The notes under the pieces were generated by a model, which was given only the letters and a program-made list of their open reading frames with translations, was not told the origin of the DNA and ran no database searches. 64,000 bases of DNA from Lama guanicoe. Taxonomy: Eukaryota. Below are positions 27,947 through 50,905 of this stretch, piece after piece (position 1 is the stretch's first letter; every line of letters starts with the position of its first letter). The position numbers were made by a program, and so were the translations under genes. The stretch is from contig MU053065.1 in NCBI GenBank assembly GCA_013239625.1, positions 1 to 64,000 on the forward strand, written 5' to 3'.

Positions 27947-28752
27947 CTGCAAAGAAAACAAAACCAATCTCATCAGCATCAGTCAGCCTCAAACTGATGT
28001 TAAAGCCACACAGGTCTACCAAAACCAGTCTGACTGTAAGTCAGAGTGACAGACCACTGGAGTATCTTCATCCCTCTGACAGTCATAAACCTGATCGGTG
28101 TCCAAGCAACCCTGTAACTCAAGGATTACGAATTCTGATCTTCTTATGTGATAACACACATAAACCTTTTATAACATGGAAACAGTGAACCTCCAATGCA
28201 AAGTACTGGAGAAGAAACATGCTAGGCAAAACATTTCGGTGATTTGCGATGAATCAATGAATGAAAAAATGCACATAATGAATAAATGAGTACGTAAACT
28301 TCGTTCACCTGACCTACACCCACATACACACAGAACCAAAGGCACCTTTGGGACAGTAAGATAACCATCCTTTTAGAACAGAAGTTACACACATCACATC
28401 CTAACTCAGCCTAGAAATTAAGAAGCCCCTTGAATTTTTTTAAAGGATTTTTTTCCTTTGAGATGCTTAGAGGCGCAAATCTCAGCCTTAAGTAAGCCTT
28501 AAATATGCTTAAAAATGGCAAACATTTATCATGCTTTAGGTTTAAAAGTGATTTCTTTTATTAGTCAAAGAGGCTATTTTAGTGTGACATTTAAAATAAT
28601 TAAGGTTCCCCATATAATGAGCTGGGTGGGGTTGTTGAGGAAAGAGGTACCTTTACAGACTGCAGCCCAGACTGCAGGATGGGGCTCCGCCTGCCGTGAC
28701 CGTGCTTTTCAGTTTCACGTGTTAAACCCGGGAGCACCCCTCCCATGCTCAC

Positions 28753-28838
28753 CTGTCGTGCTCTTTTTAAACCCTGCACAGAATGGCTATAATGGAGATT
28801 CAGGCGAAGGCCACGTTCCTGCTGGTTAGATGCAGGCT
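28753..28838 (-). other. EPC1: EPC1 alternative exon 12 homolog (86 nt from the CAG acceptor, frameshifting; 84 nt from the adjacent GAG, in frame)
   Basis: tcacag|AGCCTGCATCTAACCAGCAG...GCACGACAG|gtgagc. One frame reads ASNQQERGLRLNLHYSHSVQGLKRARQ, resembling the human long-isoform insert NLASNQQKSGFRLNIQGLERTLQ (recalled). Confidence 0.75.
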
Positions 28839-28918
28839 CTGTGACGAAGGCTGGTGATCAGAGATGAATTCCGGTGGGAAACAACGAGGGGTAACCGCCA
28901 AGACAGACAGCTGCTCAC

Positions 28919-29037
28919 CTGTGGAGTGCTGGCAGCGGAGCTGCTGCTGGCTTGCTGCTGCTGAATCTGTGCGAGCTGCTGCTTCTGCATCAGTGCCAGC
29001 TGCTGCTGATGGTGCTGGTACTGCTCGGCTGTAAACG
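28919..29037 (-). CDS. EPC1: EPC1 exon 11 (119 nt): AFTAEQYQHHQQQLALMQKQQLAQIQQQQASSSSAASTPQ (Gln-rich)
   Basis: gttcag|CGTTTA ... CCACAG|gtgagc; ORF 28826..29101. Confidence 0.96.
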
Positions 29038-32000
29038 CTGAACACAGAAGAGAAAACGCTTTACAAAAACGCACAGCCATCACACACATCTTGCAATACA
29101 CTGAAACAGATCAGCATTTAAAAAAATACGTGTGCAAAATTAAAGCATTTTAGCATTCTGCTTTATAAAGATCACTTTCAAATGAAAATTTCAGCAGTTT
29201 TATAACCACACTTAACAAGAGTGGCTTGAGTTTAAAGAAAAACAAAATTAAACTTTCTGAGTTACACATAGGAAAGAGAGGTGCTCACTTCCCACGATTC
29301 AAAACCATTATCTTTGTAAGCTGTGACCCTCGGGCTGGCTTGCGTAAAAGGTAATACCAGCTTTTTTTTAAATCCACGTAACTGAAATTCAACTTGGCAC
29401 TGAGCTTGAGAAGAAACCTGACAATTACCATCTGGTTTCTAGTTCGCTCATCTTACTGTCCCAGTGGTTCAGACGATCCCTAGCTGTTCTCTGCATAAAT
29501 ACGTAACTGCTCGACACACTTCCTGACTTCAGTCATTACAAACATTTCCTTTATATGAAACACAAAGTTGTTGGGTTATTACCTTTTTCTTTTCTAATTA
29601 AAAGAACCCATCCTTTAAGTTTAACAGGAAGAAAAGAGGATCCAAAGGTTAATTAATTTCCCCACCCAATTAACCCACCTGGAAAAAATCCAGTCAATAA
29701 GAACGGAGTGGTTTATGTTGGTTACTGTACAGAATGATGTCTGAGGAAAGACACTGTGTTATGCTACTTATGTTTGTCTATGGAGAGCTCAGTTCTAAAA
29801 AAAACAAACAAAAAAATGTTCATTTATTACCCCCCAAAAAAGTGTGTGCAGTTTTTAAAAAAGGAAACCTTTTTTCTTTTTTTTTTCTTTGCCAATTTAA
29901 AAAAAAGCAAAAAAAAGAGCACATACAATCACAACATGACTTTACAGGCTTCTTTAAGAAGCCTGTGACGTTTGGGTAAGAATTATTTCAAAACAATTAA
30001 AAAAAAAGGGTTATCATGCACCCCTGGGTATTAGGGAATCTACAAATCATGCATATTTGCTCCATCTAACGTTTAATGCTTTCAAAATACTGTCAGCTAA
30101 TTTGTTACTGTCTTTAATTGCATTTTGATAATTTAGTTAGAACATTACTTCACCAAGTTTTATAATTTTCATTTAGCGCTCACGAAGAATCTTTCTCTCC
30201 CAGGATACGGCTTCTGCCTAGGACAATTGCAGAATGTTCAGACAGATGTTAGGTAGAAATTCTAATATATTCTGAATGGATCAGAAAACTGTGAAATAAC
30301 ATTTAAGAAAACTCCAGGTGTTATCAGTATTCACACAGGCTCTTATTCTTGAGCTGAACTAATTTCTTGGGCTAAAAAGGCAAAAAATAAGTTGTTGGAG
30401 AAATTCTATTATTCATCTTCTTATTTTGGGTGTTACAAATCTGTTTAGTTGATATCTGTCCTTTGATGAGTTTCTTTTCCTACCATGTTTGTAATCCTTG
30501 GATCTGAATTCTACAGGAAGACTTTTATTGATAATAGGATAGTCCCTAAATATTGACATTAAAGTAACTTTGTCAACATGACCATTTCCACGTAACAGAA
30601 ATGTGTTAAATCAGAACTTGAAGAAAATTAAATTTAAAAAATGCTGCTGCTCTGAAAGAGTGTTTATAATCAACATAATATTTATCTTTATATTTAAAAA
30701 AATCTATGAAAAGCAGTTGTTTAAAACTACAGATCTTTAACTTACTAGTTCAGCTAATATATTTTTGAAATTTATACTTTAATTTTCTAAGTTTGAGTGA
30801 GTTACTTAAATCTTGAATTTCCTCTTGAGATGCTTAGTAAACTTTTAAAAACAAAAAAAGGACTGTTTCTGGAAGGTCGTATCATTATACACCTAGAAAA
30901 TAATTTAGCATTCACTATAAAAATCTATATACAAAACTCCATTTATATAAGTGAAAATATTCTTTCATCTAATTTTGCCTGGGTCAGTGTGTTCTAATAA
31001 AAAAACAGCAATATTAAATTGGAAATCAATTTGAATAAAGGTTCCAAATATTTTTGCTCTATTTAAATCAACATTTTAATCCTCAGTCTCTGAAGGTTTT
31101 ATAAATTTCACTTTTTGAACAACTGTTAACTTCCTCCTAATACAGATTTAGAAATAAAAATGCAACTGACTTTTTAGATCCTGAACACTCATCAGATTTT
31201 AGATCCCCAAGTCAGACTATTTCTTACCTCTCTCTATGCTCCAGAGCCTGGTTATGAAAACTCCCCTGAACATTTCTGATAAATGTTCCAGAAGAAACAC
31301 ACAGAGCAATGTGTAAGCTAGAAGCGATGGTAATAAAACCATGGGTCTCGGGGCCAAGAGAGCCTGATTTTTTCTAAGTTCTCAGCTCTGTCATGACCAG
31401 CGGAGCAAACGTGAGCAAGTGACATAATAATCTTTTGGGGCTCAGTACGTTCATTCCAAAATACAAGAGAGATTAAAATAGCTGATCATGAAAGCCCTTA
31501 AGCTGTAAGAAGCTGAAAAGGAGACGACCTTGGATATGACTGTACTTCGAAGTCCAACGAAATGCTAAATGGGAATAAACAAAGATGACCATATTCCCCT
31601 AAATTTCTATCACGGCAGAAAGTTTTTAGGTCGTATGTCTATCTCCAGATGGGGCGTAGTAGTCAGGTTTGCAATTTACACAAAGACAGGCAGGCTGATT
31701 CTGTGGACAGATCACCAAGCCTAGAATCAGAATCATTTCACAGAACCAAAAAACTTCAGATCAGGAGGGATGCTTGGCGATTTCTTCCTACCACCTCACA
31801 CTCGAGATGAAGAACCTGTCATCCGAGGTCACGAAGATACTGAGTAGTGAAAAGGGTTTGGAACAAACCCTCCCCCAAACCAATGAGATTTTAAATATAT
31901 ATATAAAAAATAGACAAAAGTTTGTTTGAGATTTAATACTGTTCACAAAAAATTATCAAACTTTTTACGTGTCAACAGTATGCATCAAGTGCTTTCACAG

Positions 32001-35000
32001 GAATCTCAGGCCCAGACCACCTGACAGGCAGGACTCCGGGAGGGAGAAGAGCCAGGGGCTGAGGGAGGAGGGCATGGACAAGGTGACAAGCTGAGAACAG
32101 GGAAGGGCGGGCCAGGACTTCAGGCATGTGGAGGCCACTACGATGATGGAGCTCAGGAAACCCAACAGTGTGCCTCCGGGACACACAGGACCTGTGCGTT
32201 TACACGTTTAAGGAGGCAGCTTTTGTTCGACGGACAAACTTTCTAAACGAGATTCCCAGCTGGAGAACAACCTGATCTAGGAAGTTGCTGGATTTTAATT
32301 TGCCCCGGAGGTGTCTAGGCAGAGGTCAGATACTACTGTTGCTTTGGGAGCTTCTAACAATTCTCTGGGGTAGGAATTTAGATGAAATAATCTACGACTT
32401 CACGAGTCCACTTCTTATGCAAGGACCCAGTATGCGGGACACCAGCACCTGCAACAGCCTGAGTTCAGGCTGCTGCCCTTTAAGTCACGTTCCCGAAGCA
32501 GGAGTGGACGGGGTGGGCCCACTAAAACAAACTATTTGAAAACTCAGTTTCAGAAGATGGATTCTAGATTACTAAAATGTGTATTTCTTATAAAAACAAA
32601 AACAAAACCCAACAAACCCAAACCCCTATTTCAAAAGATGCTCCACAATGAGAAGTTCCTTTGAGCAGTACACAGGGAGAAAACTATCTTAATACAAAAA
32701 AAAGGGTACCTTTAAAGAAATATAAACTGAAATGACTGCAGACAGTAATGTGACCCCCTAATCAGCTTGAATTGACAATTTGGAGGTTCATAAGTGCTTA
32801 TAAGTTACCTAAAAAACCAATCTGTGAAAACAAATCTTTATTACAATTCATTTGATAGCAAATTATGGCCAAGTCTGTATCATTTGACTGCAAGTGATTT
32901 GAACATGAGATTATCTGTGGTCAACTTTCCGCTCAGTGTGGACACTGCTGCACGTCACATAGCTGTAAAAGCATGACTGTATCTGACTACGGGCGCTGCT
33001 CCAGACTCTGCTGAACGTGTGATTCTCATTCTGAAACACATCTGGTTAAGGATTAAGGTCCCACAGAATGACAAAGTCTAACAATGAGAATATTCAACGT
33101 TCAAATCTAGAGTTCCTTTCCCACAGCACTTAGAAAAGTGACTGAAAGTGCTGATGAAATTTCACTGGGAATTCAAATCCTGAACATATTAGGGTCATTT
33201 AAAAATCATTTTTCTGTTTTTAGTCTTTCTGAGTTACAGAGTACATTCTAATTATGGAAAAAAGGTATGAATTCTGAATCTGATACCCCCCAAACTCAAA
33301 CACATGCAAATGAATATTAGTTGCTGAACAAACACTAAGTTTTCAAAGGTGTTTTTGTAGATTAAACAACATCAAAAAAATGTATTTGGAAACTGTCCAA
33401 ATCACGTATTAATTAAAGACTATTCAAAATACACAATTTACCCTTAAGTACTAGAAAGCAGCCCTAGAGATTTTAACGCTGTGTCATTCTGCCGCGCAGC
33501 ATCCAGAGGACCGAGCACTGCAGCGCCAGACTAACCAGGCCTCCACTCGGTCGCACAACCGTGCAAAACGGACAAGACTGGGAAGGCAGCAGACAGACTC
33601 AGAGCAGCTCGATCAGAGGCGACAAAAGCTGGTGTGCTCAACTCGTGCCCTTCACCAAAAATGATGGGCTCACGATACCCTCATTTAGAAACTCCTACTT
33701 GAACGTGAGAACCGGCCCTTATGGAGGATTATTCAGAAAAGGAAAAATCAGTCCAGAGGGCACCACTATGTCAACGGCACACATGTAAACACTAGCATTT
33801 AAAACAATTACAGAATAATCAAAAATGGCTGAATCAAAACCCACATATCTGGCCAGAGCAGCAGGCAAGTTCCCCAGCTGACCTGCAGGGCATGTAACGG
33901 CTAAGTTCTGAAGTCGGCACAATAGAAAACTAAGCCCTGAAGACTCCGTCAGCGTGTCCGTGAGAGACCCACCTCCTTCCAAGCCCACACAGCCCACCTT
34001 CCTCTGATAGCAGACTAGATCGGAGTGTCTGCGGCTGAATACCAGGTTCGTATTTGGGGGCTACGCTACATGAGAAAACCTATCTTTAGAAGAACTACAG
34101 TGACATGGATGGAGGCAAGATGGCAGCAGCGCGAAGCAACAGCACAGGCAGCGGCGCCGCAAGGGGGACGGGGCCCGTGGAGGCCCGCTCGTTCAGGACA
34201 GCTGTGTTCACAGGCTTGTCTAACGTCTGAACTGCTAAAATTCTAATTTTTTCTCCACAGGCCTACAGTTGAATTCACTTAAGTTAAAGGTATATACAGT
34301 ATGAGTCGACTGCTCAATACTTTATATAGAGCACGAAGATAGAGCTTTAGGTTTCTGGAACATTCACAAACATGAAGAATAGAGCGTTACCCTAGAGCAA
34401 TCTGCAGGTTTCCATTCTGTAAGAAGATCTAGTAAAATTTAAGGGAAAAATTGAAAACAATGAAATGCAGCAGGAAAAAAACTGATAAACCCATGTAAAA
34501 ACAGTATTATATATATAGGGGAAGGAAATGACTAAAAAAAATTAGTGTTACTAAAGAGTTTTTTCAGCTAAACTTTTGGTAATACTACTGTATGATGTTC
34601 ACCTTTCAGTATTCTCTGGCAAATACAAATCAAGTCAGTTTTACAATATCCAAGCTTAGGTCTACGTATTGCTGAACAATTTTCATACACGGATCATGAC
34701 AAATCCTTAGAATATTTACACAATTCAGCTTTAAGAGGTAGCAAAGGCAAGAAATGGATAGAACAAGCCAATTTTCTACGTGTGGTTGCAAAGAACTTTA
34801 AAAAACTGGAAAATATTTATCAGGGGAACACATTATAAGTTTATACTAAAATCTCTGCACTCACACCATACATAACTCCTCCTTCATACTGAAAAGTTCT
34901 TCATTTTGAATCTTAAGACTATAAAAGCAGAGAGAAACACTCTTCATGAAACAGACTCTGAAACTAATGGGATTATAAATAATTTGCTAGATTTCAGAAT

Positions 35001-35905
35001 AATTTAGATTATCTTCAACTTGATTTCTGAAACGTGATGATCTTTCTTATGAGGCCAAAGACTTCCATTTCATAGAAATACTTTATTTCTAACCACAAAG
35101 TACATTAAGTCTATGGAACCTTTCCTGGAGGTCTTTAAGAAGAAGAAGCATATTTTCATATTTACTAGGTTTAACTGTAGCCTTAGCAGACAGAGGGACA
35201 GATAAATACTATTACAGCCCTTTCAAAATCTATACTTGAATTATTTTTATAAAAATCTGTAGTAACATAATTTTAATAGTGAATTTCTATAACCTACATG
35301 CCTCAAACAACAGCTTTAAGATAGAAAACTAAAATTTGAGAATACTTTAAGGAGACAGCATTTATTTTAGACACATTTCACCATGTAGCCATAATGCTGA
35401 AGTAGGTATTACCTGAAAATGTCCCCAAATTTATTAAAATAATCTTTTAATTTAAATGTTTTTCTCTGAAAAATCAATTTCCCTCTTACAAATTATTTTG
35501 AATTACTGTGTCATCAGATAAGGCTTTGCACGTCTATCGACTTGCTGGTCTACTTTTAAGCAACCTAAGGAAAAGACCAGAAAAGTGTCCAAACATAATG
35601 CAGTATCAGTTTATGGTCCACTGTCTTTTCACATTACTTGTAAAGAGTTGAATTTTGTGGTTCTCAAAGGGTATCCAGGAAACAAACCTCCTACATTAAA
35701 TAACAGTGAACACCCTACGCATGTGGGCATGTTTAAATGAAGACACGTGTACAATCAGGACTCAAATAAATACTTAAACATAGATTTAAAAAAACTACTA
35801 CTAAGAGAAAGGGACTTCTAGCGCTAAGTATAAGAGGCCACACACTCAAAACCTTGATGAACCGGGCGCTGCCACGGAAACACACCTCGTAATGAACGAA
35901 CATAC

Positions 35906-36258
35906 CGAAGTGAGCCGCGCCGCCGCCGCTCTTACTCTGCGTGGAGGTACTGCATGTCTGGGTCCCGGGCGGTGCTGTTCCTATTCGGTTCACACTCCTA
36001 TACAGTTTTCTACAGGAGAGTTCATCATTGTCACTGTCATGTAGGGACAGTGTCCGAGGCCTGAAGTGTCGCCATCTACATGATTTGATATTGACTAGTA
36101 TCTGACTGAGGTCTTTAGAGAAAGATGTGTCCGAGGTATTTGTTTCTGAGGTATTGGCAAACTGATTGACTGGAGAACGCTGTGGAGAGGAAAGCATTTC
36201 CAAGTCCAGATGGCGAAACACACTGTCATAGTCTGAGTGAGCTCTGTCCAGCAAGACC
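35906..36258 (-). CDS. EPC1: EPC1 exon 10 (353 nt): VLLDRAHSDYDSVFRHLD...CRWRHFRPRT...SKSGGGAAHF
   Basis: tgatag|GGTCTT ... CTTCG|gtatgt; ORF 35733..36302. Confidence 0.96.
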
Positions 36259-36530: not shown

Positions 36531-37811
36531 AATCTCAATTTCTGATAAAGGTTCTTTGACTTTATAATGATCCGACTAAAGAAGGAAGTAATCACCTTAG
36601 AAAATAAGGTGTCCATTTTACAACAAGCAGCAAGTCTCCTAACCCTTCTACAGGTTGGCCTAACAGTGTGTCACTGACACTGGACAGGAGAATTTGATTT
36701 TTCACTTCCATTACAAAGCACCAAAACACTTCATGAAATATTGCTAACCTATCTGTTCTTCATTTAAGCAAAAACTTAATTTTTTTTTAGGGGGGGTAGG
36801 TAGGAGAAAAGCAGTAAGAGGTATGCATTCCATGGATATTTCACATCATTAAAATTTCTTGCAGACAAAATAACTCAGCCACTACTTACTCTCGAGGATA
36901 TATTTTCGTGTTACGTATGTATGTAAACTTTATAAATGACTCCATCTTAGAATAATAATGCTGATTAATGCTAGTAAGAATAAAATATAGCCAACAGAGA
37001 ATTTTCACTACTACTGATGTCAGCATAATGATGGGACTGGAAGTGTTCTATAAAATGTCTTAGTGCCTGGATAATTCTAAACTAAGGATTAAGTGATTAA
37101 AAGTTGCAATTAAAATTCAAAAACGAAAGTAATGTATGCATAAGCCATTAATTTACCATAAATTATATCCTTAGGCTTCTTCCTGAAAGCACCTTGATAT
37201 TGTCTCTTTTGCCTTTGATTTTTTTTTGATTTTTTTTTGACATTATACATGGGTGTCTTTCTTTTTCTTTGCTTTTCTGTGTTCTGAGATTTCTTCTCTG
37301 CCCTACACCTTCACAGAAAGACACCTGGAGCACGAAGGACTTCCACCAGGTTTAAACGAAGGAAGTGCTGGCAAACTGGATGTCAAGATCAGGTCCCGCA
37401 GCCTTTCCACAGATGAGTTAAACAGCTCAGTATTTATATGACGTTTCTTGGCCTATTTTATCCTCTCCCCCCAGAACTCCTAAAACAATTCTGTGTGGTT
37501 TTTTCAACTTAATTTATACAGTCATGTTTAACCCTTGCCTTCATCTGCTGCCTTTTCTCAGAATTCTACCTCTGAGGATAGATATCTGAGGTTTCCAGTC
37601 TTGGGAAGAAAAGCAGACCCACTAGGGAACTCTTAGTTACGCACAAAAAGCTCTTGTGTAAGAAACAGCAAAGTGGCAAAGTGTTTCAGTCAAGAAACTC
37701 AGCGAACAGCAGGCGGGAACAAGTGAGCTGCTCAGAAGGACTACCTCACCTTAAATGTCAGATGGTTGCCCCACCTGAACCCCCTGCGCCAGGAGCGCAG
37801 AAGCGCCTTAC

Positions 37812-37960
37812 CTCCCTCCGCGCCCCAGCCGCCTACGTGCGAAGCCGATGCACCTGCGGGGCACGGTCAGGGTCGTCAGGCAGTATCGGTAACGCGCGTC
37901 CCCGAGGCCCCCATCTGCAGGGCTCGTCCAAGGCCAGTTGCCAGTTTGGTCTAAGTGAGG
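37812..37960 (-). CDS. EPC1: EPC1 exon 9 (149 nt): PHLDQTGNWPWTSPADGGLGDARYRYCLTTLTVPRRCIGFARRRLGRGGR (EPcB region)
   Basis: tttaag|CCTCAC ... GGGAG|gtaagg; ORF 37808..38008. Confidence 0.96.
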
Positions 37961-38042
37961 CTTAAAAAGAAAAATCCCAATTATTTCGTTTTGCCAGGCA
38001 AAAACCAACAGTCTGTGCTTAGAAAGAGAAACGTAAACTTAC

Positions 38043-38132
38043 AGCGTAGTACTGACAGCCTGCCTTCCTGCGGAAAGCAAAGGGGCCGTCGGGGTCGTTC
38101 TCTTCCTCCGCTTCCGAGGAGCCAGACAACAC
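38043..38132 (-). CDS. EPC1: EPC1 exon 8 (90 nt): VLSGSSEAEEENDPDGPFAFRRKAGCQYYA
   Basis: gttgaaag|GTGTTG ... TACGCT|gtaagt. Confidence 0.95.
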
Positions 38133-38164
38133 CTTTCAACAGAAAGATGGAGTCAGGCACAGGC

Positions 38165-38510
38165 CCTCCCAGCCCTGCCTCTGCCCCCACAGCCCCTGTC
38201 TCTGCCCCCGCAGCCCCGTCTCTGCCCCCCAGCCCCCGNNNNNNNNNNNNNNNNNNNNNNNNNNNNNNNNNNNNNNNNNNNNNNNNNNNNNNNNNNNNNN
38301 NNNNNNNNNNNNNNNNNNNNNNNNNNNNNNNNNNNNNNNNNNNNNNNNNNNNNNNNNNNNNNNNNNNNNNNNNNNNNNNNNNNNNNNNNNNNNNNNNNNN
38401 NNNNNNNNNNNNNNNNNNNNNNNNNNNNNNNNNNNNNNNNNNNNNNNNNNNACCCGCAGCCCCCGTCTGACCCCGCAGCCCCCGTCTCTGACCCCCACCC
38501 GCGCCCCCGC
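38165..38510. repeat. GC-rich ~20-bp minisatellite (cagccccgtctctgccccc-like unit) in EPC1 intron 7, spanning an assembly gap
   Basis: Units start at 38170, 38190, 38211 and 38230 and resume after the gap. Confidence 0.85.
38239..38451. other. Assembly gap (213 N)
   Basis: Run of N. Confidence 1.
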
Positions 38511-38516
38511 GCTCAC

Positions 38517-38693
38517 CTGGGACAGGGGCTCCTCATCCGAACTGGGGAAGTCGTACTGGTTCAGATCTTTCGCGTTGAAGCCGGGCAGCGCGGCGGGGCC
38601 GGCCTGCGGGGGCGCGGCAGCCGCGGCCGGCGGGAAGACTTTGGGCTTCTTTTCATATTTACGCTTGGGTCGGATGAGATCGGCTTTATCTTG
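38517..38693 (-). CDS. EPC1: EPC1 exon 7 (177 nt): QDKADLIRPKRKYEKKPKVFPPAAAAAPPQAGPAALPGFNAKDLNQYDFPSSDEEPLSQ
   Basis: Translated by hand; ctgcag|CAAGAT ... TCCCAG|gtgagc. Confidence 0.95.
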
Positions 38694-39708
38694 CTGCAGC
38701 GCGGGTAGGAATCAAACATGAGAAACCATGTTCAACAAAGTTTTGGAGAAGTTCTAAAAATAAGTTTACTGCTAACATGCAGGCATGCGCACTCAAGAGA
38801 CAAGACCCTTACAGTCAGTCATCTTACACGGTAAAGTCTTAGAGGTCGGTCTCTGAAAACATGAGGGTGCTCCTACAACCTACACATAATCAGCAGTATT
38901 CTGTTTTAATTAAAGTAAAAGAAGAGAAGTTCTCCAGCTTCTGAAATCCTATAATTGCAATTGGTATTCACTGCGGGCTTCTGTATCTTTTTTCTTAATT
39001 TTCTATGAAAATTCTAGGAGAGAATTTAAAAATGGGACGTCTAACCTTTATTCCAAAGAATTAACAAATCAGTACTGGGAAGGTAATAATGAAAACGATT
39101 TTATGCATATACAGCAAACTTCAGATAAGCATTAACACAGTGAAAGATAAATCCATAATGCTAAGGTACTGAAAAAATACAGAGCAGTAAGGACTTGCTG
39201 GCTGAACAACGAAGGCCCTTTGGAGCGGTGGATTTTGAGCAGTTGGACAGGTAAAGATATGAAATCACTCAACGGACGCACGGATAAAATACAAAGGCAG
39301 GAGGGACGGAGCGACGAACACAGGGAGGTCAGAACCGTGCAGGCAGGGGGGGCAGAGGCCGGGAGAGGTGCGTCCCATGCGAGGCCAACAGGCAGGAAAA
39401 GAGCAGAGGCAAAAATGTTTGTCCGGAAGAAAAAGATCACAGCAGGTATCACGGTTGTGTAAATATGCTAACTGTGTGTCAAGTTCTCTGCAGTTTAGGG
39501 CCTTCCCGTCCTTAAAGGAAAGTCGATGATGACACTAGAAGGTCGCTCTCTCCACAGCTGCTCCTGCCGCGCCCACGGGCCAGCCTGAAATCAGAAGCGC
39601 GCTTTGCGCGTCCTTCCTGGGCTTACATGTGCTTTCCTGTTTCCCTGATTCCGTGACAAGACACCACGCCCACGCTATGAGCTACTGTCACCGCAGAGCC
39701 CTTCTCAC

Positions 39709-39868
39709 CTTGCTGCCTTTGAACTCCTTGGCGTCCACCGCTTCCTGGTGTCGGTACTGGGCGCTGTTGGCGATGGGGGCGGCGGGCGCGGCGTACGCGG
39801 GCTTCCCGGGCTGTCTCTGCGCCAAAACCTCGGACACGATCTCGCCGCTGTAGTCGCCCAAGTTATAC
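39709..39868 (-). CDS. EPC1: EPC1 exon 6 (160 nt): YNLGDYSGEIVSEVLAQRQPGKPAYAAPAAPIANSAQYRHQEAVDAKEFKGSK
   Basis: Translated by hand; gacgcag|GTATAA ... AGCAAG|gtgaga; phase fits exons 5 and 7; unusually GC/CpG-rich. Confidence 0.93.
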
Positions 39869-40758
39869 CTGCGTCACCGGAAACGCAGCCTGAGAAGTTC
39901 GTTCCCTAAGCACTCATCCTCGCGACTGCCAACAACTAACTGAGACACAGTGACGAACACTGACGGCGGTGAGCGTGCGATGAGACCGCAGCTCCCCCCG
40001 GGCTGCTCGCTGAATGCTCATTAAAACTAAAGACTATGTAATTCCTACAGTCTCTTTCTTTTACTTTTTGGCTTATAGCTTTATCTCGGCACCATTAATA
40101 GACAACTGTGGGGAAAAAACAAAGGTTTAAATTTTAACATAACAATTCTGGTCAAAGATGTGGTGGAGATGTTCAAATTCATGCCTCAAATGGCGCTGAG
40201 GGACTTACTGCTAAATTCAGTTGCCTGTGCTATAAAACTAATTTTCCTGAAATGAACTGCAGGAAATTTAACAGTGGTTTTCCCTGGGAACAAGGACTAG
40301 GAAACAGGGGAGAGAGGCCCTCCCTGCTGAAGGGTCATCTGAGGGTTAGGTGTACATCATGGGCCTTTCCCCTCCCCCTCTCTATCTCCTTCTCTGTTAA
40401 AGAAACTCAGTAAGTGTTTAACATAAAAGTCAGTGCCATCTAGTGAATAAAATAAAAACTTTAAAAGTGGCAAGTGTTCTCTCCTTCACAGCCCTGCACA
40501 CAACTCAAGTAAGGGCAAAAGAACATGATTTCAAAATGGAAATACCTGGCATGTTTCACTTACTCAACCCAGTCACTTTCAAAGGAAATAAAGACAGGAA
40601 TTCACATAAAATTACACAGTGTGTCATCCTACACATCTCAACGGTCTCTGATTATTATGACAAGAATGTATTTCTGAAGTTACACACAAGTGCTTAGGAA
40701 ATAAGTCTACACAAAACACTAATGGTACCATACTTCTAATGCTATTAAAATATTTTAC

Positions 40759-40907
40759 CTCTTTTCCATAATTTCCAGTGTTAAGTGCAATAGCTCCCTT
40801 TTACTCTTTTCTCTTCTTTTTATCATCTCTAGAATAGTAACAGCCCGACTGAGATCTCGACGCAGCTTAAGCATTTTTTCGTAAGAGGCTTCATCATTTT
40901 TGCGATT
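40759..40907 (-). CDS. EPC1: EPC1 exon 5 (149 nt): NRKNDEASYEKMLKLRRDLSRAVTILEMIKRREKSKRELLHLTLEIMEKR
   Basis: ttgcag|AATCGC ... AAGAG|gtaaaa; ORF 40755..40946. Confidence 0.97.
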
Positions 40908-41293
40908 CTGCAAATATGAATTTGCTTGTTTAATGTCCATAAGCATGTCTAACTAGTGGCATTCTGAGTACAGCTGCTGATATAGAAGAATACATATATT
41001 TGAAGGGTTAGATTAGAACTTAAAGACACTGAAAAGGAACATGGATCACCAGGAAATCAACTATGAAAATGGTTTTTAAATGGATTAACCTTAAAATATA
41101 ATCATTAATAGCTCTGTAATGAATCTTAAGGTCGACTCACTTTAAACTGATACTTTTTCATTATATTGGATAGAAAGTCTGTCTAAACACCAATTAAAAC
41201 ACAGCCTTCAGATAACTGAGATATTCATAATCATAGACACATTTTCTTACATCAAAAAAAAAATTACAAAGAAATGTCCCCAGGGTCTCTTAC

Positions 41294-41500
41294 TTTTCGA
41301 GTCTGCATTTTTTCGGTGCGTCTTCTAAAAGCCACATAGGGGTCATTTGTGCTGGAGCCGTCTCGTTTCTCCTGTTTCACTGATGGGATGAGAGACGGCC
41401 CTCGACAGCTTTTCCTCTTTTTAATCCAGTATTCATAAACTTCTCTGATTAATTCATCATCTTCTTTTAGCAGTAGTTTGGCTTCCTGCAGACTGACTGG
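41294..41500 (-). CDS. EPC1: EPC1 exon 4 (207 nt): PVSLQEAKLLLKEDDELIREVYEYWIKKRKSCRGPSLIPSVKQEKRDGSSTNDPYVAFRRRTEKMQTRK
   Basis: Translated by hand; atttag|CCAGTC ... CGAAAA|gtaaga; contains the conserved DPYVAFRRR EPcA motif. Confidence 0.97.
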
Positions 41501-41589
41501 CTAAATGCAAAATCATTATGTCATTTTCACATAATATAAATAGAGGGTTCAAAAGTACTTCTAAATTTAAATAATAATCAGAACAACAT

Positions 41590-41800
41590 TAACAATAGCA
41601 AGCATGCTGAGAACCTTATACATGTCAGACAGTGAGCTAGATGCTTCATTTCAATTGTTTTAATTTTCACAACGAACCCTGTAATGCTTCTCCTCTCTAT
41701 CTCACAGATGGGGAAGCTGAGGCAGAGAAATTTAAACATATTGCTGAGGTGCTACAGGTTAGTAACGGACAGAGACAGCCTATGAACTCATGCTTGTCCG
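41590..41800 (-). mobile_element. MIR SINE
   Basis: tttaattttcacaacgaaccctgta...acagatggggaagctgaggcagagaaatttaaacatattgctgagg. Confidence 0.7.
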
Positions 41801-41896
41801 GAGCCTGCCCGTGTGCCCTCTCCCCAGTGTTATGCTGTTTCCACATAAAGATTTATACACACACACACTCTTACTATATATACAGTGAAGATCTAC

Positions 41897-42042
41897 CTGC
41901 TGACCACTGCCTTTTTCTAGACGGTCAATCATTTCCTCAAATTGCAATGGGCAGATGTCCATTTTCTTCTTCAGTTTATTCACAAACACTTCATCTTCAG
42001 AATCCAAATCATAGTCGGGCTGTTCGGCATCCAGGCTAAAAG
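41897..42042 (-). CDS. EPC1: EPC1 exon 3 (146 nt): FSLDAEQPDYDLDSEDEVFVNKLKKKMDICPLQFEEMIDRLEKGSGQQ
   Basis: tgtcag|CTTTT ... CAGCAG|gtagat; ORF 41780..42085. Confidence 0.97.
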
Positions 42043-43779
42043 CTGACAAAAGAAACCATAGCCAACATTTACTACGTGAACGCACTGACCAAGGCCTCCC
42101 ACAGGTGTCTGGATAATTTCTAAAGGAATAAGAAAGACTTTTTTTAAGATTTTGTTTTCAGACTCACAACGTAAACTTCCCACATTTAAAGTTTAAGAAA
42201 GAAGATCATCTTTACTGTTAAGATAAAAGTAATGCACAATATGGGTGTGACCCCTCCCCCACGCCCCAAAGAAACTAGAAGCCCATTAAGAACATAAGGA
42301 GACTGTTAAATGTCCTGGGCTGAACTGTGTGAAAAATTATGTAGCTCAGAAATGAGGCAGTATCAGTAATTCCATGTAATCTGACACAATGATGAAAGGA
42401 GAGGCTCTCTAAGCAAGATCGTTCCTAGAATATTTAGGTCCTGCTTTATAGATCACTTAACGACTTTACCAAAAGCTCAGGGAGTGGCATTTAAAGCTGA
42501 CACATCAGAAGCCATTGCCAACAGCGCGCAGAGCTGTCTGCGGGAGAGTGCGTTCCCGCCACGGAGGCGCATCCGCTGGTGAGAATCGTCCCCTGGTGAG
42601 AATTGCTCTCATGGTGAAACGTGGGGTGTTCCTTAGACTTGCCAAGAGTTGAAGAAAAGGGCAAGAACCACTGCTTCATACTATTCCACCAAATGTCATT
42701 CAATTCCTTACCAAAACTAAACTAGTTTGATAATAAGTAAAACATTAAGAAGCTTGATATCAAAGTCTGTCTCACACCTTTCCCTGCTTTAACTCCTCCC
42801 TCCTAATTCCCCATCTCCTTCAAATCCAAATCCTTGGAATCGTAGGAGCCCCCTTCTGACCCAGGCTCCTCAGCAAATTTCATGTATTTCAAACAGCAGG
42901 CTCCTTCATGTCTTCAGGCCTTTCCATTGGCTACTTTCCACCTGTCCACCTAGCAAAGGACTATTCAAATCTTCTCAGAAACCAGCCTGACAGCTAGTCC
43001 AGTGAAGTCTGACCACCCTCCACCCAGTGAGCGGTTCCGTACCACATTCATCTTTTGTAGAAGCTATGAACCCTCTCCCCAGAAAAACAGCACAAGCACA
43101 CAACACTCAGCACAAATTACAAGCAATTCAGACGTCCCTAAAAGCTTGTGGCACCAAGGTGAAAAATCCTGTTCTAGATCACCCTCCTCCTTTTGTACTG
43201 TTTTTCGCACATACTTTATAACCTGCTTGTTAAGCATTCGAATGTGCTCGATGTCCTTGAGAGGAGGCACTTTGTCTTATTTTTGTTTCTCTCTGTACCG
43301 CCAGTGCAGAGACAGTAAATTCATCATCACGCCCACTCTGCTCGCAGTCCTCCAGTGAAAAGCATTTGGATTGACTCTATTCAAGCGGGGAAAAAACCTG
43401 AAAAAAATCCGCTGGGACAAGAGGGGGCTGTCTGGCACCCCAAATCTGCCATCCCTGACTCAAGTTTAACACAGTATCTGGACCACACGAATCCAGTACA
43501 CATTTGTAGAACTGAACACACTGTACCACTGTTTCATTTTCATTTTGACCTGTATCACACTTCTGTAACATCCCTAACTGAATGAATATTCACATTCCTT
43601 CATAAAAACCTCTGTATTAACATCTCTGTACTCATGTTTCTTGCAACCATAGGCCCTCCAATGATTTTCCATCATCTAATTCTGTTACTGCTATAGCAGT
43701 ATTTGGAGATTTCAAAGTGGATTAAAACTCTGTTGGATTAAACACAGTTGTTTTTCTGTCCTTAACCAAAAAAATTCGT

Positions 43780-43985
43780 ATCTCTGTTGTTCAACAGTCA
43801 CACTAGCCACATGTAACTACATTTAAATTAACTTAATGAAATCAAAAATTCAGTCCCCTGGTTACAGCAGTCACATTTCAAGTGTTAATTAGTACATGTG
43901 CTAGTGGCCAGTGCTGTAGCAGACACTACAGATTATTAAAACATTTCCATTATCACTGAAAGTTCTACTAAATAACGGTGACCCA
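43780..43985 (-). mobile_element. MER3-like DNA transposon
   Basis: cactagccacatgt...aaaattcagtcccc...cacatttcaagtg...aacatttccattatcactgaaagttcta. Confidence 0.7.
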
Positions 43986-44253
43986 GATACTCCAGAAAGC
44001 CAAACTGACAGGGACCAGCCATCAAAGTTCCTCCTTCTTAAGGGTGCATTTTATATGTTTTTAGGTATCATGTGCACGTCTGAGATACTTCCAGCATACA
44101 CTGTATCACCAATGACAAGTCACAGCCGACCAACCAGGGAATGGAATCCAGACAGGAAAGGAAGGCTCCCACCCTGGAGACCTCTGTGTCTTTCCCACCG
44201 AAGTCGACACGCACCTGGGGGTCAGACTGCTCTTGCCTCTGCAAGCTTTTCTT

Positions 44254-44295
44254 AATTCTGTTTTCTGTTTTAATGGAGGTACTGGGGATTGAGCC
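44254..44295 (-). mobile_element. 5'-truncated tRNA-Ala SINE (B-box half plus tail only)
   Basis: taatggaggtactggggattgagccc; perfect TSD caagcttttctt at 44242-44253 and 44296-44307. Confidence 0.85.
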
Positions 44296-44955
44296 CAAGC
44301 TTTTCTTTAGTTAGTGCAAACACATCTAAGATCTTAAAATATGAGGAGAACCAAATCTTGTTCAGATATAAAATATCACAGCCCTAGAGAAAAGCTACCA
44401 TGTAAAAATTCACTTTAGGATTTCATCCGCCCAAAAACCCACAGCCGGTGATTAAAGTGCAATTTGGCTTCAGCCAAACCTGAAGCTTCCAAACTGACAG
44501 CTCAACCACAGCTGCAACACACTTACAGCGAGTGGTCCTAGAAGCAGGAGCATCTTCAAATTCCCTGGGCCGTGTTACTGAGTGGAGAAGAGGGTCTGAA
44601 GAGAAAGGGAAAGGAGTCGCCTCTTCTAATTAAGCTCTGCCATTGCACGTGAGACCCACCCGGCCAGTAACTGGTGAACAACAGGAGCCGTACTGGAGAG
44701 GCTGACTCCTTCAAGAATGCCCGGATAGGGATAAACCCAGGTACGTGCACAGCCAAACAAAACACAGCACTCCACACAGGAAAAAAGCCTAAGCAGAAGG
44801 AACACAGCAGCACATAGCGGCCGACTGTTTAAAGGAGACACAAAGAGGTGAGACCGCTGGTGAAATGTACGTAAACGTCCACGTAACAGACGCCTCCTTA
44901 CGGCTCAGGCCAAGTGCACGTGGGTGGGACGCCCATAGCGCCAAACAGCACTTTT

Positions 44956-45095
44956 GTTTATTTTTTGGCAGTGTTTGTGTGTTTGTTTGGGGGGGGCTAA
45001 GTTTATTTACCTATTTATTGTGATGGCAGCCCTGGGGTTTGAACCCAGGACCTTGTGCATATGCACTCTACCACTGAGCTACACCCTCCCCTCCG
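44956..45095 (-). mobile_element. tRNA-Ala-derived SINE
   Basis: SINE body; TSD aacagca(c/t)tttt. Confidence 0.87.
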
Positions 45096-45739
45096 AACAG
45101 CATTTTTAAACTACAGGAAGCAAATAATGAAAGGGCATTTGAGTCTGTGAAACAGCACAAAATGTGGATTAGGAACAGGATGTAACTCCTGACTGGAAAG
45201 AAGGCGCATGCGTCAAGGCGGAGGAGAAACCTCGCCCAGCGGGGATGGCAGAAGGTGTCAGTTCAAGTGCCAACTCAGTGACCGGTAATACCGATTCGCC
45301 AAGCCCAGGAGGCAAATTCTGGGCAGCAGAAAAGACTGTCATAAAGGTGGCACTTAGTGCGGGGTGGTAGGTATCTGACCTCTTTGCTTAGACCTAAGCA
45401 GACAAAGCATCACTGGCTAGCCAGATCATGAAACTCTTCAGCTTGTTCACATTTATAAACAACAGAGCTTGGAGTCACTTCAAGGTCGTACTCAGGGAGA
45501 GCAAATGGAGAAGCCCTGACGTGAAGGACCTGAGATCCCAGCTGTGAAGTCCTTTGTGATACAGCAGTGTTTGATGCTATGGGTGCTGTCTGTGAGAAAG
45601 CAGAACCAGAAGAACGCTGGGGGGAAGTGGAGGCAGGCAGAAGGAAGGAGAAAAAGGAGCCTTTCAGAACCAGGGCACACAGGCTGTGTCTGCTCTGAGA
45701 GGTAGTAAAAAAGTAGGTTCTACAAGGATCTATTTTTAA

Positions 45740-47000
45740 AAATATTTTTATTCAGAAATAAATTCAAACTTATAAAAGCTTCAAAATATAGTACAAGGAA
45801 CACCTGCATATCCTTTACCCAGAATCACCTGCTGTTGAAATTTTATTCCACTTTATTATTTGCATGTGTGTCCCCCCCACACACACACGCGCGTAGACAC
45901 CCGCACACACATCTTCTGAACCGTCGCAGAGTAAACTGCCTCCCTAGCGCCTCTGCCGCCACACTTCAGAGTGTGTTTCCTAAGACAGAGGGCCTCTCGC
46001 GCAGCAGCAGCAGACATCAGCTTTCCGTTCCCATCCTGCCAGCCGAGCCGGCCGTTCGCAGGTCCCCACTCCAGCACAGGACCAGCCAGGGACCAGGGCT
46101 TACTCTCCACTCTCCTTCTTGTCTCTTTAGCCTCCTTTAATTTGTAACATCTCCATAGCCTCTGTCTTTAAGATGTTTCCTGAAGGACACATCCCTCTCC
46201 CCAGGATTTTATGTTTGTTTGTTTAGGTGAAGTACTGCTGACAGACTGCGTTCTGTTAGTTTCAGGTGTTGCTAGCAGCACATTCTTCACTCCGTGGGTC
46301 TGATTTTCCTGGCACAGTGAACATTCAACTTCTTAGTCCTTCTCAGGGTCTCCGACCTAGAGGCACACAGTGTTCATCTGTTCCTCATCAGTGGTGGTAA
46401 TTTTGATCATGAGACAAGGAACTACCCAGTCACCCCATTATGTCCCTGCTGTCCCATGCCGCCTGTAACAGATAAGCAGTTTGTGGGGAGAGTTAAGGCC
46501 GTGCAAATACCCTGCTCTCAGCAGAACCTCCTCCCATACTGAGCACACGCTGGAGTCTCTTGTGTGACTGCACCCCGACCGTGAAGGCTGTGAGCCCAGC
46601 CTCTCTTCTCTCCACACCACACCACCCGGCTACAGGAGTCCTCTGCTGCAGAACCACGTGACTGCTTAGTACCAGGACGGACTCAGGAACTCCCACTTCC
46701 TGCGGTTTATGGTTTGTCACTGTGCATAATTACTCCGCTTCTCAGGATGTCCCAGAATCAGCCAGTGGACAGGCCTCTGCCATTTTTTAAGTGCTTAATT
46801 TCTGGCACAAGATGTTGCAGGTTATCCTGTACTTACCCTGCCCCAGCCCTGGAATTGGCCATTTCTCCGCATAGTCCTGGCCTTCTTTAGTGGGGAACAG
46901 GTCAGAGAGCAGGCACTAGGTATGCACACTGCTACTCAACACTTTTGCTTCTTGGCCCAACCAGTGGACAGAACTGGAAATGCACGTGTCTGTATCTGTA
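45740..47000 (-). mobile_element. Ancient L1M(C/E)-type 3' region
   Basis: ttttattcagaaataaattcaaacttataaaagcttcaaaatatagtacaaggaacacc...; ttctggcacaagatgttgcagg...cagccctggaattggccatttctcc. Confidence 0.55.
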
Positions 47001-47849
47001 CACGCACGTACTTACACAAATGCACACCAAGACTGCTCCTTTAAAGAAGGCTTCCTTTGAGGATTAACAGGAGAAAACCTTGAGAACCAAGTTCAAGGGG
47101 AAGGGAGAGAGAACTGCTCTGTCCTTTCTTCCAGAAGGAAGAGGAAAAGGGGAAGTCCCAGCTGTATAACCTGAAGCCTTATGGATCACCCATCAAAAAG
47201 AAACCACAGTAAGACCCTCTGGATCAGGAGATGCTGAATAGCACCCTGAGATATTTTGGAAAGTACCCACAGTCTGGAACTAAAGGCGGCAATAATGGTT
47301 TTAATACAGGTTTCTTCCTGCACAGCTCTGACTGGGATAAAAGAGAGAAAATTATGATCTCTTTCCTAAGCTGGCTGAAGACAAAAATAAAGTCGAGATT
47401 TTCCAAACAAATGTTCAATGAAATGTTAACAGATACATGTAATGAATACATTTGAAAACTGCTGGGTTAAAATAAAGTTTTTTTTTTAACTGCAAGATTC
47501 CCAGAGCCCATAAACATAGTAATATGCGTTACAACTCTGGGAGTGGAAAGGGAATTTATATGCAATAATTCTCAAACGTGTTTGATCATGACTTTTTTAG
47601 GCAATACTAATTACCATCCTAGAAATTCCATGGAAGTTTGTGTAACATTAGCTTAAGAGTTTTATAAAATTGAAATTAGGAGAATTGAAATGAACCAGTC
47701 TATATATATATAATTCGAGGCAATTACCCATCATAAGCAATTTCTTAGACCACCTGGCAGTCAAGATTCAATTTTAACTTCACAGAAATTTACAGTATAA
47801 CTAGCTTTTCTGTGTATTATAGTATATTAAAAAGCCAGTATCAATTTTT

Positions 47850-50320
47850 AAAGAATTAACATCAGTTTTACACAATCTCTTCCAGAAACCAGAGTAAAAG
47901 GGAACACTTCCAACCTGGTTTTTGAGGACAATATTACTTTGATACCAAAATCTGACAAGACTGAGCACACACACAAAACAGACTACCACCAGTATTTTTC
48001 ATGAACTCAGATGCAAAACTCAGTAAGATCCCAGCCAACAACATATCAAAAAAATACACACGACAGCCAAGTGGGATTTATTCCAGGTATGCAAGGCTGG
48101 TTCACTATTCAAACCCAACCAATGCAACCTACCGTATCAACAGGCTAAAGAAAAATAATCACATGACCTTATCAACTGATGCAGAAAAGCATTTGACAAA
48201 CTCAACAGTCATGATAAAAACTCTCAGCATACTAGGAATAGAGGGGAAAAGCAACACAAAAAAACCTACAGGCGGCATGACACTTAGTGGTGGAAGGCTG
48301 AATTCTTTCCCTCCAGGACCAGGGACAAGGCAAGGATGTAGGTTCTTAACACTCTTATTTTAACATCATATTCAAGTTCTAACCACGATACTAAGGCAAG
48401 AAAGAGAAATTAAAGACATACAAGTTGGAAAAGAAAAAATAAAACTATCTCTACTTGCAGACTACAACATGACTTTCTATATAGAAAATTCCAAAGAATT
48501 TGCAAACATCTTCTAGACCTAATATGTAATTTCAGTTAAGGCCACAGGACATAAGCTCAATACACAATTCAACTGCATTTCTGTCAGTGAACAAGTGGAA
48601 ACCAAAATCGAAAGTGCAATACCATTTTCAATTGTTCCAAATGCATAAAACAGGTATAAGTCTTCTAAAAAGTACGAAAAAGATATGGATCTGGATGATG
48701 AAAATTATCAAGTGTCAACGAAAGAAGTCAGAGCAGATCTGAACGCCTGGAAAGTCACACAGTGGTCACGGATTGGGAGACTCAACATAGCAAAGATGCC
48801 AGTTTTCCCTACGGTGACCTGTAAGTTTCATGCAATCCCCATCAAAATCTCGGCAAATTCTCTGCACATGCAGATGAACTTATTCTAATACTTACAGGGA
48901 GAAGCCCTCAAGCACCCAAAGCAACTTTGAAGGAGGAAAATGAAGGAGGAGGCCCTCTCCCTGACGGCAGGGCCATCACACAGCTGCAGGGGTCACGGCA
49001 GCGGCACCGTCCAGGACTCAGAGGTGAATGGAGCAGAACCCAGAACCAGGTTCACACCAATATCCCTAATTAATGTTTGGCGGAGAAGCAAAAGCAATTC
49101 AACGGAGGAGGGATCACTTTTTCAATAAATGGCGCTGGAGTAATCAGGTATCGGGGGTAGGGGTGCGGGGCGGGGGGCGAGAAACACCATGACCTAAACC
49201 TCACACTCAAAATGACCATACACTTAAGTGTAAAGTGTAAAACTGTGATATTTCTAGAACAGGTCATAGGAGAAAGTCTTGACACCCAGAGCAAAACAAA
49301 GAGTATTCTTAGAGTTGACAGCAAACTCATGACTCATAAGACGAACATTGGTAAGTAGATCTCATCAAAATTAAAAACAACCTCTGCTCTGTGAAAGGCT
49401 CTGCTAAGAGAATCAAGACAAATTACAGCCTGGGAGAAAGTATTTTCAAATCATATATATGACAAAGACTTGTGTCTAGAATATGCAAACAAAACAAAAT
49501 GCTTAGCACTCAACATTAAAACAATCTAATTGGAAAATGGGCAAAAGACATGTGCAGTCATTTCACCAAAGAGGATACAGAGATGGCAAACACACAAAAG
49601 GACGGTTAACCTATCAGCCATTTAGAGAAACACAAACTTAAAGCACAATGAGGTATCGCTGCACACCTGATGAGAATGGCTAAAACGAGTGACAGTCTCA
49701 GACGCTGGCCAGGGCACAGAGAGAAGCTGGATCACACACACACTGCTGCTGCTAACGTGAGACGGCACAGCTGCTCTCAGGCTTCACGCACAAGTTCTTG
49801 TCAAACTGGAAACGGATGACCCAGCAACTACACTCACAGGACTCTGTCCCAGGGAAATAAAATTTATGCTCACACAAAACTCTGCGCATGGGTGTTCACA
49901 GCGGCTGTATTTGTAATGGTTAGAACCTGGAAACTACCCAAAGGCCTTCCAGTGGGTGAACGGTGCAACACTGTGAGGCACAGGCACTACGGGAGGACCA
50001 CTCAGCAACAGGAAGGGAGGATCTGCCGACACGAGACAGCCTGGATGAACACTGAGGGCGTCACGTGAAGTGAGAGAAATCCCACCTCAGAAGCACAGGC
50101 ACTGCATGACTGCCTTCACGTTACGATCATCAGCTAACAGCTACAGAGATGGAGAACAGATCAGCGGCTGCCAGGGGCTAGGGATGGGCTTAAAGGAGCA
50201 GCAAGGTGGTGTCTCGTGATGGTACAACTGAGTGTCTCAGTCACAGCAGTGCTTATACAAGGCTTCACATATTGTTCTGTGAATCTATAATCATTCAAAA
50301 CAAAATGTTAAAAGAAATTC
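47850..50320 (+). mobile_element. Old L1M, ~2.5 kb (RT through 3'UTR), antisense to EPC1
   Basis: ORFs 48001..48363 (INRLKKNNHMTLSTDAEK, GTRQGC) and 48685..48888 (WSRIGRLNIAKM...IPIKI) are degraded L1 ORF2. Confidence 0.9.
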
Positions 50321-50761: not shown

Positions 50762-50905
50762 TTTTAAAAATTATTTATTTTACTTTTGGGGGGAGGGGAG
50801 ATAATTAGGTTTATTTATTTATTTTTAGAGGGGGCACTGGGGATTGAACTCAGGACCTCCTGCATGCTAAGCACGCGCTCTATCCCTGAGCTACACCCTT
50901 CCCCC
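50762..50905 (-). mobile_element. tRNA-Ala-derived SINE
   Basis: SINE body; TSD aaagcatgt. Confidence 0.9.

Follow-up and report, generated by a model that had tools for sequence, protein, structure and literature searches.

How did a chromatin scaffold protein that barely changed over its exons 2-5 come to carry a dense burst of amino-acid replacements a few exons further on, in camelids and not in other mammals? The question is raised by EPC1 (enhancer of polycomb homolog 1), which serves the NuA4/TIP60 acetyltransferase module as its scaffold and whose exons 2-14 lie on the minus strand of a stretch of 64,000 nucleotides from Lama guanicoe (assembly GCA_013239625.1, contig MU053065.1, positions 1 to 64,000; hereafter the window). 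A preliminary description made from the letters alone had singled out 37812..39900, which starts at the final base of exon 9 and ends shortly upstream of exon 6, and had attributed the changes there to GC-biased gene conversion. We arrive at a similar answer, and put its probability at roughly 0.7: GC-biased gene conversion at a hotspot that is now extinct or saturated is the best explanation, and would have acted on two segments of EPC1, with exon 6 at the centre of the first and exons 7-9 at that of the second.

The exon junctions were solved against camelid proteins, with GT-AG at all 13 exons of the window; exon 1 lies outside it on the same scaffold. In plus-strand coordinates, exon 6 occupies 39868-39709 (53 codons, residues 273-325), exon 7 38693-38517 (59 codons, residues 326-384), exon 8 38132-38043 (30 codons) and exon 9 37960-37812 (50 codons), all on the minus strand. 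Exons 2-5 (52144-51985, 42042-41897, 41500-41294 and 40907-40759; together 40759..52144, minus strand) served as the internal control of the comparison. The spliced translation of 762 codons is 100% identical to the Vicugna pacos EPC1 models X8 and X4, and Camelus ferus X1 differs from it at five residues, none of which is encoded by exons 6-9. In the camelid protein, Pfam places EPL1 (PF10513) at residues 7-148 and E_Pc_C (PF06752) at 582-718, the latter shortened in this isoform compared with 582-813 in the Bos protein; exons 6-9 encode the part of the protein between the two domains. Domains, exon structure and full-length identity all mark the gene as the EPC1 orthologue, the paralogue EPC2 being located on a different contig. 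Both GC-rich strings quoted in the preliminary description were found on the minus strand.

Compared with human EPC1 (PDB chain 8qr1_C, from the solved structures of TIP60), 16 of 52 aligned residues differ in exon 6 and 8 of 58 in exon 7, which exactly reproduces the counts of about 16 and about 8 given in the preliminary description. A protein search with exon 6 matched 393 proteins. Among the best 120 of these, identity of 100% in exon 6 was restricted to five camelid entries (Camelus ferus twice, C. bactrianus, C. dromedarius and Vicugna pacos), and the best non-camelid protein reached 74%, turtle, birds and lizard included. Hence, the Ala/Gly-rich sequence, which might have been common to other mammals, is camelid-only as far as exon 6 is concerned.

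To the camelid branch, Fitch parsimony on the window translation and 27 outgroup proteins assigned 14 changes in the 53 codons of exon 6, 6 in the 59 codons of exon 7, none in the 30 codons of exon 8 and 4 in the 50 codons of exon 9 (positions 429, 436, 449 and 459), that is 24 changes in 192 codons. The outgroups were picked from the same best 120 matches for near full length (811-818 residues) and taxon spread and comprised 5 ruminants, 6 bats, 1 lemur, 8 rodents, 1 pika, 1 sloth, 2 elephant shrews, 1 turtle, 2 birds and 1 lizard; a bear protein entered the raw difference count only. Exons 2-5, said to differ at about one residue in total, carry a single camelid-branch change in 221 codons. 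The excess of amino-acid changes in exons 6-9 is significant against exons 2-5 (Fisher p = 7e-8) and against all remaining exons (p = 2e-4), which include exons 10-14 (25611..36258, minus strand) with 24 changes in 349 codons, likewise mostly weak-to-strong, i.e. from A or T to G or C. The burst proposed for exons 6-9 thus stands for exons 6, 7 and 9, and does not extend to the protein sequence of exon 8.

In the whole-tree mapping with the 27 outgroups, no other mammalian branch showed more than six changes in exons 6-9, and only the terminal branch of the lizard came near the camelid count, with 19. A stricter filter, which demands that the camelid residue be absent from every placental outgroup, retained 15 of the changes in exons 6-9. 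Of these 15, seven hit sites at which all 23 placental outgroups share one residue, and at four of the seven the 4 sauropsids share it too. At positions 357 and 363 in exon 7, camelid-like residues occur elsewhere: some non-camelids have Gly at 363 (Mus pahari and the proteins P0206, P0207 and P0212, which are translated open reading frames (ORFs)), and P0206 additionally has Gly at 357. Outside camelids, these glycines are convergent weak-to-strong replacements of independent origin.

The camelid sequences also date the burst. Between alpaca and C. ferus there are no differences in exons 6-9, and dromedary model X2 adds a single one, in exon 8. As the camelids are identical in exons 6, 7 and 9, all 24 changes fall on the camelid stem, and none has accrued since. 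The burst is therefore older than the split between camels and lamines, and it then ceased; camelid lineages are described in the accessible part of one publication as having evolved independently for 'more than 11 million years' (PMC13751797). Two strong-to-weak changes are clearly lamine-specific, namely T556I and the CpG transition P534L, both encoded by exon 10.

The direction of change is strongly one-sided. When each nucleotide change was inferred by comparing the camelid codon with whichever codon of the ancestral residue is closest to it, with third positions left unpolarised, the camelid branch showed 25.0 weak-to-strong and 0.33 strong-to-weak changes in exons 6-9, besides 2.7 strong-to-strong and 2.0 weak-to-weak. 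For the whole gene the corresponding values were 45.7, 2.3, 6.0 and 2.0. A control based on amino acids only gave 20.7 weak-to-strong and 0.8 strong-to-weak changes for exons 6-9 on the camelid branch, as against a balanced 57.2 and 51.9 for all non-camelid branches summed (Fisher p = 8e-5). The shift towards GC-rich codons noticed in the preliminary description is thus borne out. It is, however, not confined to exons 6-9, because the bias of the camelid branch is gene-wide and is also seen in exons 10, 11 and 13.

These C-terminal exons, 10-14 (36258-35906, 29037-28919, 27946-27805, 27717-27354 and 25680-25611, minus strand), show weak-to-strong skewed amino-acid bursts of their own in other lineages. 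Eulemur has 30 changes there, with 27.8 weak-to-strong and 1.8 strong-to-weak; the corresponding values are 22.2 and 1.5 on the murid stem and 17.8 and 3.4 on the stem of the emballonurid bats. Biased episodes seem to recur in EPC1. In the same part of the gene, 28753-28833 (minus strand) holds an alternative exon of the long isoform (841/842 residues), of which only 18 of 27 residues match the bison protein; it is as divergent as exon 6, yet its direction of change is mixed.

The same tendency is found at sites that do not alter the protein. GC content is 0.66, 0.63, 0.61 and 0.68 in exons 6, 7, 8 and 9, compared with 0.38 in exon 5 and 0.42 in all intron sequence of EPC1, so that the initial impression of GC- and CpG-rich exons 6-7 next to an AT-rich exon 5 was correct. 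The ratio of observed to expected CpG (CpG o/e) is 0.84-1.12 in exons 6-9 versus 0.43 in the introns. At fourfold-degenerate sites, G or C is found in 21 of 23 cases in exon 6, 28 of 31 in exon 7, 10 of 14 in exon 8 and 21 of 31 in exon 9, and in 36 of 74 cases in exons 2-5 and 102 of 191 in exons 10-14. Exons 6-7 together (49/54) differ clearly from exons 2-5 (p = 4e-7). The enrichment continues into the introns: the 200-bp flanks of exon 6 have a GC content of 0.52 and 0.57 and a CpG o/e of 1.09 and 0.84, while the flanks of exons 2-5 range from 0.29 to 0.45 in GC.

Along the window, the enriched sequence forms two peaks, to neither of which a strand is assigned. Peak A (39201..40000, ~0.8 kb) covers exon 6 and extends ~500 bp into intron 6 and ~130 bp into intron 5, at a GC content of 0.51-0.62 and a CpG o/e of 0.69-1.14. 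Peak B (37601..38800, ~1.2 kb), taken from a 200-bp profile, covers exons 7-9 with introns 7 and 8; its GC content is 0.51-0.72 in four 200-bp intervals (37601-38200 and 38401-38600), and its CpG o/e is 0.86-1.03 in three of the five intervals read. An AT-rich piece of intron (GC 0.32-0.38) parts the two. The clustering is therefore on a scale of 1-2 kb, with two peaks amid intron sequence of 0.42 GC and an unaffected exon 5 only ~0.9 kb away. The acceptor tract of exon 6, described beforehand as eroded, has 11 pyrimidines in 18 positions and is no poorer than the acceptors of exons 4, 5 and 14; what remains of that claim is that it is T-poor, unlike the T-rich tract implied by one mammalian ORF.

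For the introns, outgroup sequence was accessible indirectly, through ORF-type proteins in which the reading frame of exon 6 or 7 continues into a neighbouring intron; their amino acids fix most of codon positions 1-2. Since open frames select against AT-rich stop codons, the GC content of the outgroup flanks is, if anything, overestimated. The first 64 bases of intron 7 have a GC content of 0.81 in the camelid sequence, or 0.76 (32/42) at codon positions 1-2 in the exon frame; at the same positions, 17 outgroup ORFs gave 0.21-0.63 and the ruminant-type ORF 0.36-0.46. At the start of intron 6, G or C occupies 15 of 53 determinable positions in the ruminant-type ORF versus 28 of 53 at the same offsets in the camelid, and 13 of 36 in a bat-like ORF versus 20 of 36. 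Upstream of exon 6 the counts are 9 of 41 for the outgroup and 19 of 41 for the camelid. In the last 15 bases of intron 6, anchored at the acceptor and counted by hand, three weak-to-strong changes and one strong-to-weak change separate the camelid from the outgroup consensus. The flank comparison is limited to composition and to such splice-anchored bases. The expected weak-to-strong excess beyond replacement sites is thus strongly suggested by composition, in fourfold sites and flanks alike, the outgroup side coming from ORF translations only.

Further sources of outgroup or repeat sequence were searched. When metagenomes were scanned with four aligned outgroup segments of exons 6-7, 376 pattern stretches and no relative were returned, and a scan of prokaryote genome contigs for outgroup EPC1 DNA found nothing. 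A metagenome scan with exon 7 of the window gave one locus, L001, with 44% identity over residues 22-56, which was judged a chance match of Ala/Pro-rich sequence. No interspersed repeat common to the GC-rich region and the rest of the window was found, and intron 6 matches only itself in the genome and is single-copy; they offer no repeat consensus against which intronic changes could be polarised. The introns of EPC1 do contain copies of a tRNA-derived short interspersed nuclear element (SINE), e.g. at 36440-36545, 44939-45109, 50768-50941 and 57233-57400, with recurring translations like GIEPGALCMLSTRSTTELH; a self-comparison of the window showed none of them inside the GC peaks.

In the protein, most of the replacements fall where they are likely to be tolerated. 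In human TIP60, as described in the accessible part of a structural report, the connection between EPc-A and the core is R290-P398 of EPC1, predicted to be an unstructured linker; D399 is the first resolved residue, the loop of residues 400-440 is disordered, and EP400 is contacted by K407 and H416 (PMC11330486). Mapped onto these boundaries, 18 of the 24 camelid changes lie in the linker, two in the loop (429, 436), two just before the linker (283, 287) and two in the structured EPc-B (449, 459). In exon 7, camelids retain the basic KRKYEKKPK patch and, apart from V363G just before it, the FNAKDLNQYDFPSSDEEPLSQ block; the acidic block after residue 364 as well as K407 and H416 are unchanged too. 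A biased process appears to have been filtered by purifying selection.

A burst restricted to one lineage, arranged in two peaks of ~1 kb, directed almost exclusively from weak to strong, spread over replacement and, judged by composition, fourfold and intronic sites, hitting conserved residues and episodic in time is the pattern expected of a hotspot of GC-biased gene conversion. In the proposed course of events, meiotic recombination would have initiated repeatedly at this spot, and mismatch repair of the heteroduplex would have favoured G/C over A/T alleles. Weak-to-strong mutations would then have been fixed at fourfold sites, in intron flanks and at those replacement sites that the protein tolerates. 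Because most of the replacements lie in the flexible tether between the acetyltransferase-binding EPc-A and the EPc-B anchor, we propose that EPC1 stayed functional throughout, until the episode ended or saturated. The preliminary description had named three outcomes that would speak against gene conversion: Ala/Gly-rich exons 6-7 in other mammals, no weak-to-strong excess at synonymous and intronic sites, and an assembly error. None of them was encountered as far as the analysis reaches, and to that extent the reading is supported, recombination itself being what we infer from the pattern of substitutions.

Several points weigh against this reading. The tree contains ruminants as the sole cetartiodactyl outgroup, and no pig, whale, hippo, horse, carnivore or full-length human protein. 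Synonymous and intronic evidence is compositional and not polarised site by site, as the outgroup flanks are ORF translations that inform codon positions 1-2; beyond the splice sites, site-wise flank alignments were poor, five of six having a negative score and the sixth a score of 1.6. The fourfold GC of exon 6 (0.91) far exceeds that of its intron flanks (0.52-0.57), which a simple uniform tract does not predict. A CpG o/e near 1 persists although the burst stopped before the camel/lamine split, and this agrees less well with a long-dead hotspot than with an unmethylated island or a process that is still active; perhaps the peaks behave as CpG islands by now, or the process continues at saturation. 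As to chromosomal position, the window has no telomere repeat, and the scaffold is only 170,919 bases long. The sole hint on the recombination setting is that the sequence records with camelid EPC1 measure 29-36 Mb, versus ~83 Mb in bovids.

Intron 7 contains a feature that could favour either gene conversion or a different origin of the bias. It is a GC-rich minisatellite (38163..38500, minus strand) with a unit of ~20-21 bp, G-rich on the gene strand, which is interrupted by an assembly gap (38239-38452) with G-quadruplex-type motifs on both sides of it; a search for further copies in this genome returned the self-match only. Such a G-rich minisatellite is a plausible companion of a recombination hotspot, and the two may be tied here. 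It could also have caused a local weak-to-strong mutational bias without any gene conversion, through error-prone repair or conflicts of replication and transcription at quadruplex-prone DNA, the mutations being fixed by drift. A regional effect on every site class and a locus-specific repeat with quadruplex-type motifs in the middle of peak B would suit this explanation, and with the present data a bias of fixation and a bias of mutation are inseparable. We nevertheless consider it unlikely. Mammalian mutation is biased towards A/T, and peak A lies ~1 kb from the minisatellite with AT-rich intron in between. To fix 24 changes by drift alone in a strongly constrained protein is harder than with a fixation bias, the more so as the camelid-only changes include those seven at sites that are identical in all placental outgroups, four of them in sauropsids as well.

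The high CpG content invites the explanation that the region is an intragenic CpG island, a germline-unmethylated promoter or enhancer in which hypomethylation and selection maintain the composition and the amino-acid changes are a side effect. A CpG island is commonly taken to span at least 200 bp with a GC content above 0.5 and a CpG o/e above 0.6. Such a composition is found at 39601-40000 (GC 0.60-0.62, o/e 0.92-1.14), 37801-38000 (GC 0.60, o/e 0.95) and 38401-38800 (GC 0.51-0.72, o/e 0.86-1.03), and the CpG o/e near 1 in spite of a static protein agrees with it. Hypomethylation, however, preserves CpG and cannot create G/C from A/T. As a driver of weak-to-strong change would still be required, the island is an addition to GC-biased gene conversion and not its rival, and on its own we regard it as decidedly improbable. 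A more speculative combination, which we also think doubtful, is that GC-biased gene conversion made two intragenic CpG islands (exon 6 and exons 7-9) that were retained in camelids and today have a regulatory role, unmethylated in the germline, for instance as a promoter or enhancer within EPC1, and that the Ala/Gly/Pro-rich tether with its shortened side chains measurably changes how the acetyltransferase module is held in camelid NuA4/TIP60.

Positive selection could have placed Ala, Gly and Pro in the tether in exchange for bulky or hydrophobic residues, and thereby altered the holding of the acetyltransferase in NuA4/TIP60. The number of replacements on a single branch (24 in 192 codons), the conservation of these positions in other amniotes and their clustering in one functional element, the linker R290-P398 as delimited in the accessible text of the structural report, would suit adaptive remodelling. 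It leaves the fourfold GC of 0.91 and the GC- and CpG-rich intron flanks unexplained, and does not account for replacements that are almost solely weak-to-strong, a skew shared with EPC1 exons of other lineages such as Eulemur. In a positively selected segment, the replacement rate would exceed the silent rate with no compositional driver, and here such a driver is present at silent and intronic sites. The literature on EPC1 in camelids yielded no support among the matches listed, as far as their accessible text goes. Adaptive remodelling is therefore very unlikely to explain the burst.

Technical or paralogous origins of the sequence were also considered. Sampled words from 38460-39900 are contained at shares of 0.90-0.99 in 14 DNA runs from seven studies and five organisms, and at shares of 0.26-0.39 in five RNA runs and 0.14 in a sixth, exons making up 0.23 of this stretch; the support from reads consists of such word shares only. 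In alpaca, wild Bactrian camel and dromedary, the more recent gene models encode exons 6, 7 and 9 identically to the window, so that no assembly error is indicated. EPC2 of the same genome (G000:C55231:59846149-59929008, on a large contig) matches exon 7 at 47% and has no match to exon 6, and no EPC1 retrocopy was found in this genome; a retrocopy or EPC2 as donor or fossil of the sequence was accordingly rejected. A weak EPC-like match of 39 residues with four stop codons is present on contig C6462. Four older camelid EPC1 models (P0003-P0006) skip, truncate or frame-shift exon 7 (three of them were aligned), and newer models are intact; the defects of the older ones are explained by the GC-rich exon and the minisatellite gap beside it, which evidently pose difficulties for assembly and annotation. 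An assembly error, a collapsed paralogue or conversion from EPC2 or a retrocopy is thus largely refuted by at least 0.90 of the words in 14 DNA runs, three concordant independent models and the dissimilarity of EPC2, in spite of the gap in intron 7 and the four defective models.

Elsewhere in the window, 11001-12500 is CpG-island-like, with a GC content of 0.60-0.69 in 500-bp and up to 0.735 in 200-bp intervals and a CpG o/e of 0.78-0.94. It lies ~13 kb past the 3' end of EPC1 and may be the promoter of a neighbouring gene.

If GC-biased gene conversion is the cause, camelid EPC1 is a dense and datable case in which biased substitution prevailed over purifying selection in a core scaffold of chromatin, in part at sites conserved from the amniote ancestor onwards. 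It would appear as 'accelerated' in branch or branch-site tests, and scans for camelid adaptation should treat it as a false positive of biased gene conversion. It is also a natural experiment on which positions of the tether (R290-P398) tolerate change, in which neither the basic patch nor the contact residues of EPc-B changed. In the literature searched, we found nothing that pairs EPC1 with biased gene conversion. Among the matches listed, none dealt with EPC1 in camelids as far as their accessible text goes, and none on biased gene conversion and alpaca concerned the EPC1 locus, judging by titles and the beginnings of abstracts.

How the burst relates to known systems can be seen from three comparisons. 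The Fxy/Mid1 gene of Mus musculus reportedly moved into the pseudoautosomal region, where obligatory recombination is the known cause of its change. As is said of Fxy, EPC1 has a sharp boundary within the gene, with 5' exons unchanged and 3' exons GC-rich at silent, intronic and replacement sites in one lineage; unlike Fxy, its tract is ~2 kb long and internal to the gene, and its cause, known for Fxy, is deduced from the pattern. The hotspots of biased nucleotide substitutions in human genes reported by Berglund et al. in 2009 (PMC2631073) are, according to the accessible part of that work, likewise clusters of weak-to-strong changes in exons of conserved genes in one lineage, with a raised amino-acid rate that can be mistaken for positive selection. 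EPC1 differs from them in being placed on the camelid stem, in its very high density in one exon (14 of 53 codons) and in being described by protein parsimony and composition instead of a polarised nucleotide alignment. In GC-biased evolution near human accelerated regions (PMC2873926, PMC3278478; accessible parts), accelerated GC-biased tracts of ~1 kb similarly lie in deeply conserved sequence; these are mostly non-coding and belong to the human branch, whereas the EPC1 tract is coding and camelid-specific. The EPC1 burst is most likely a new example of this known process, GC-biased gene conversion.

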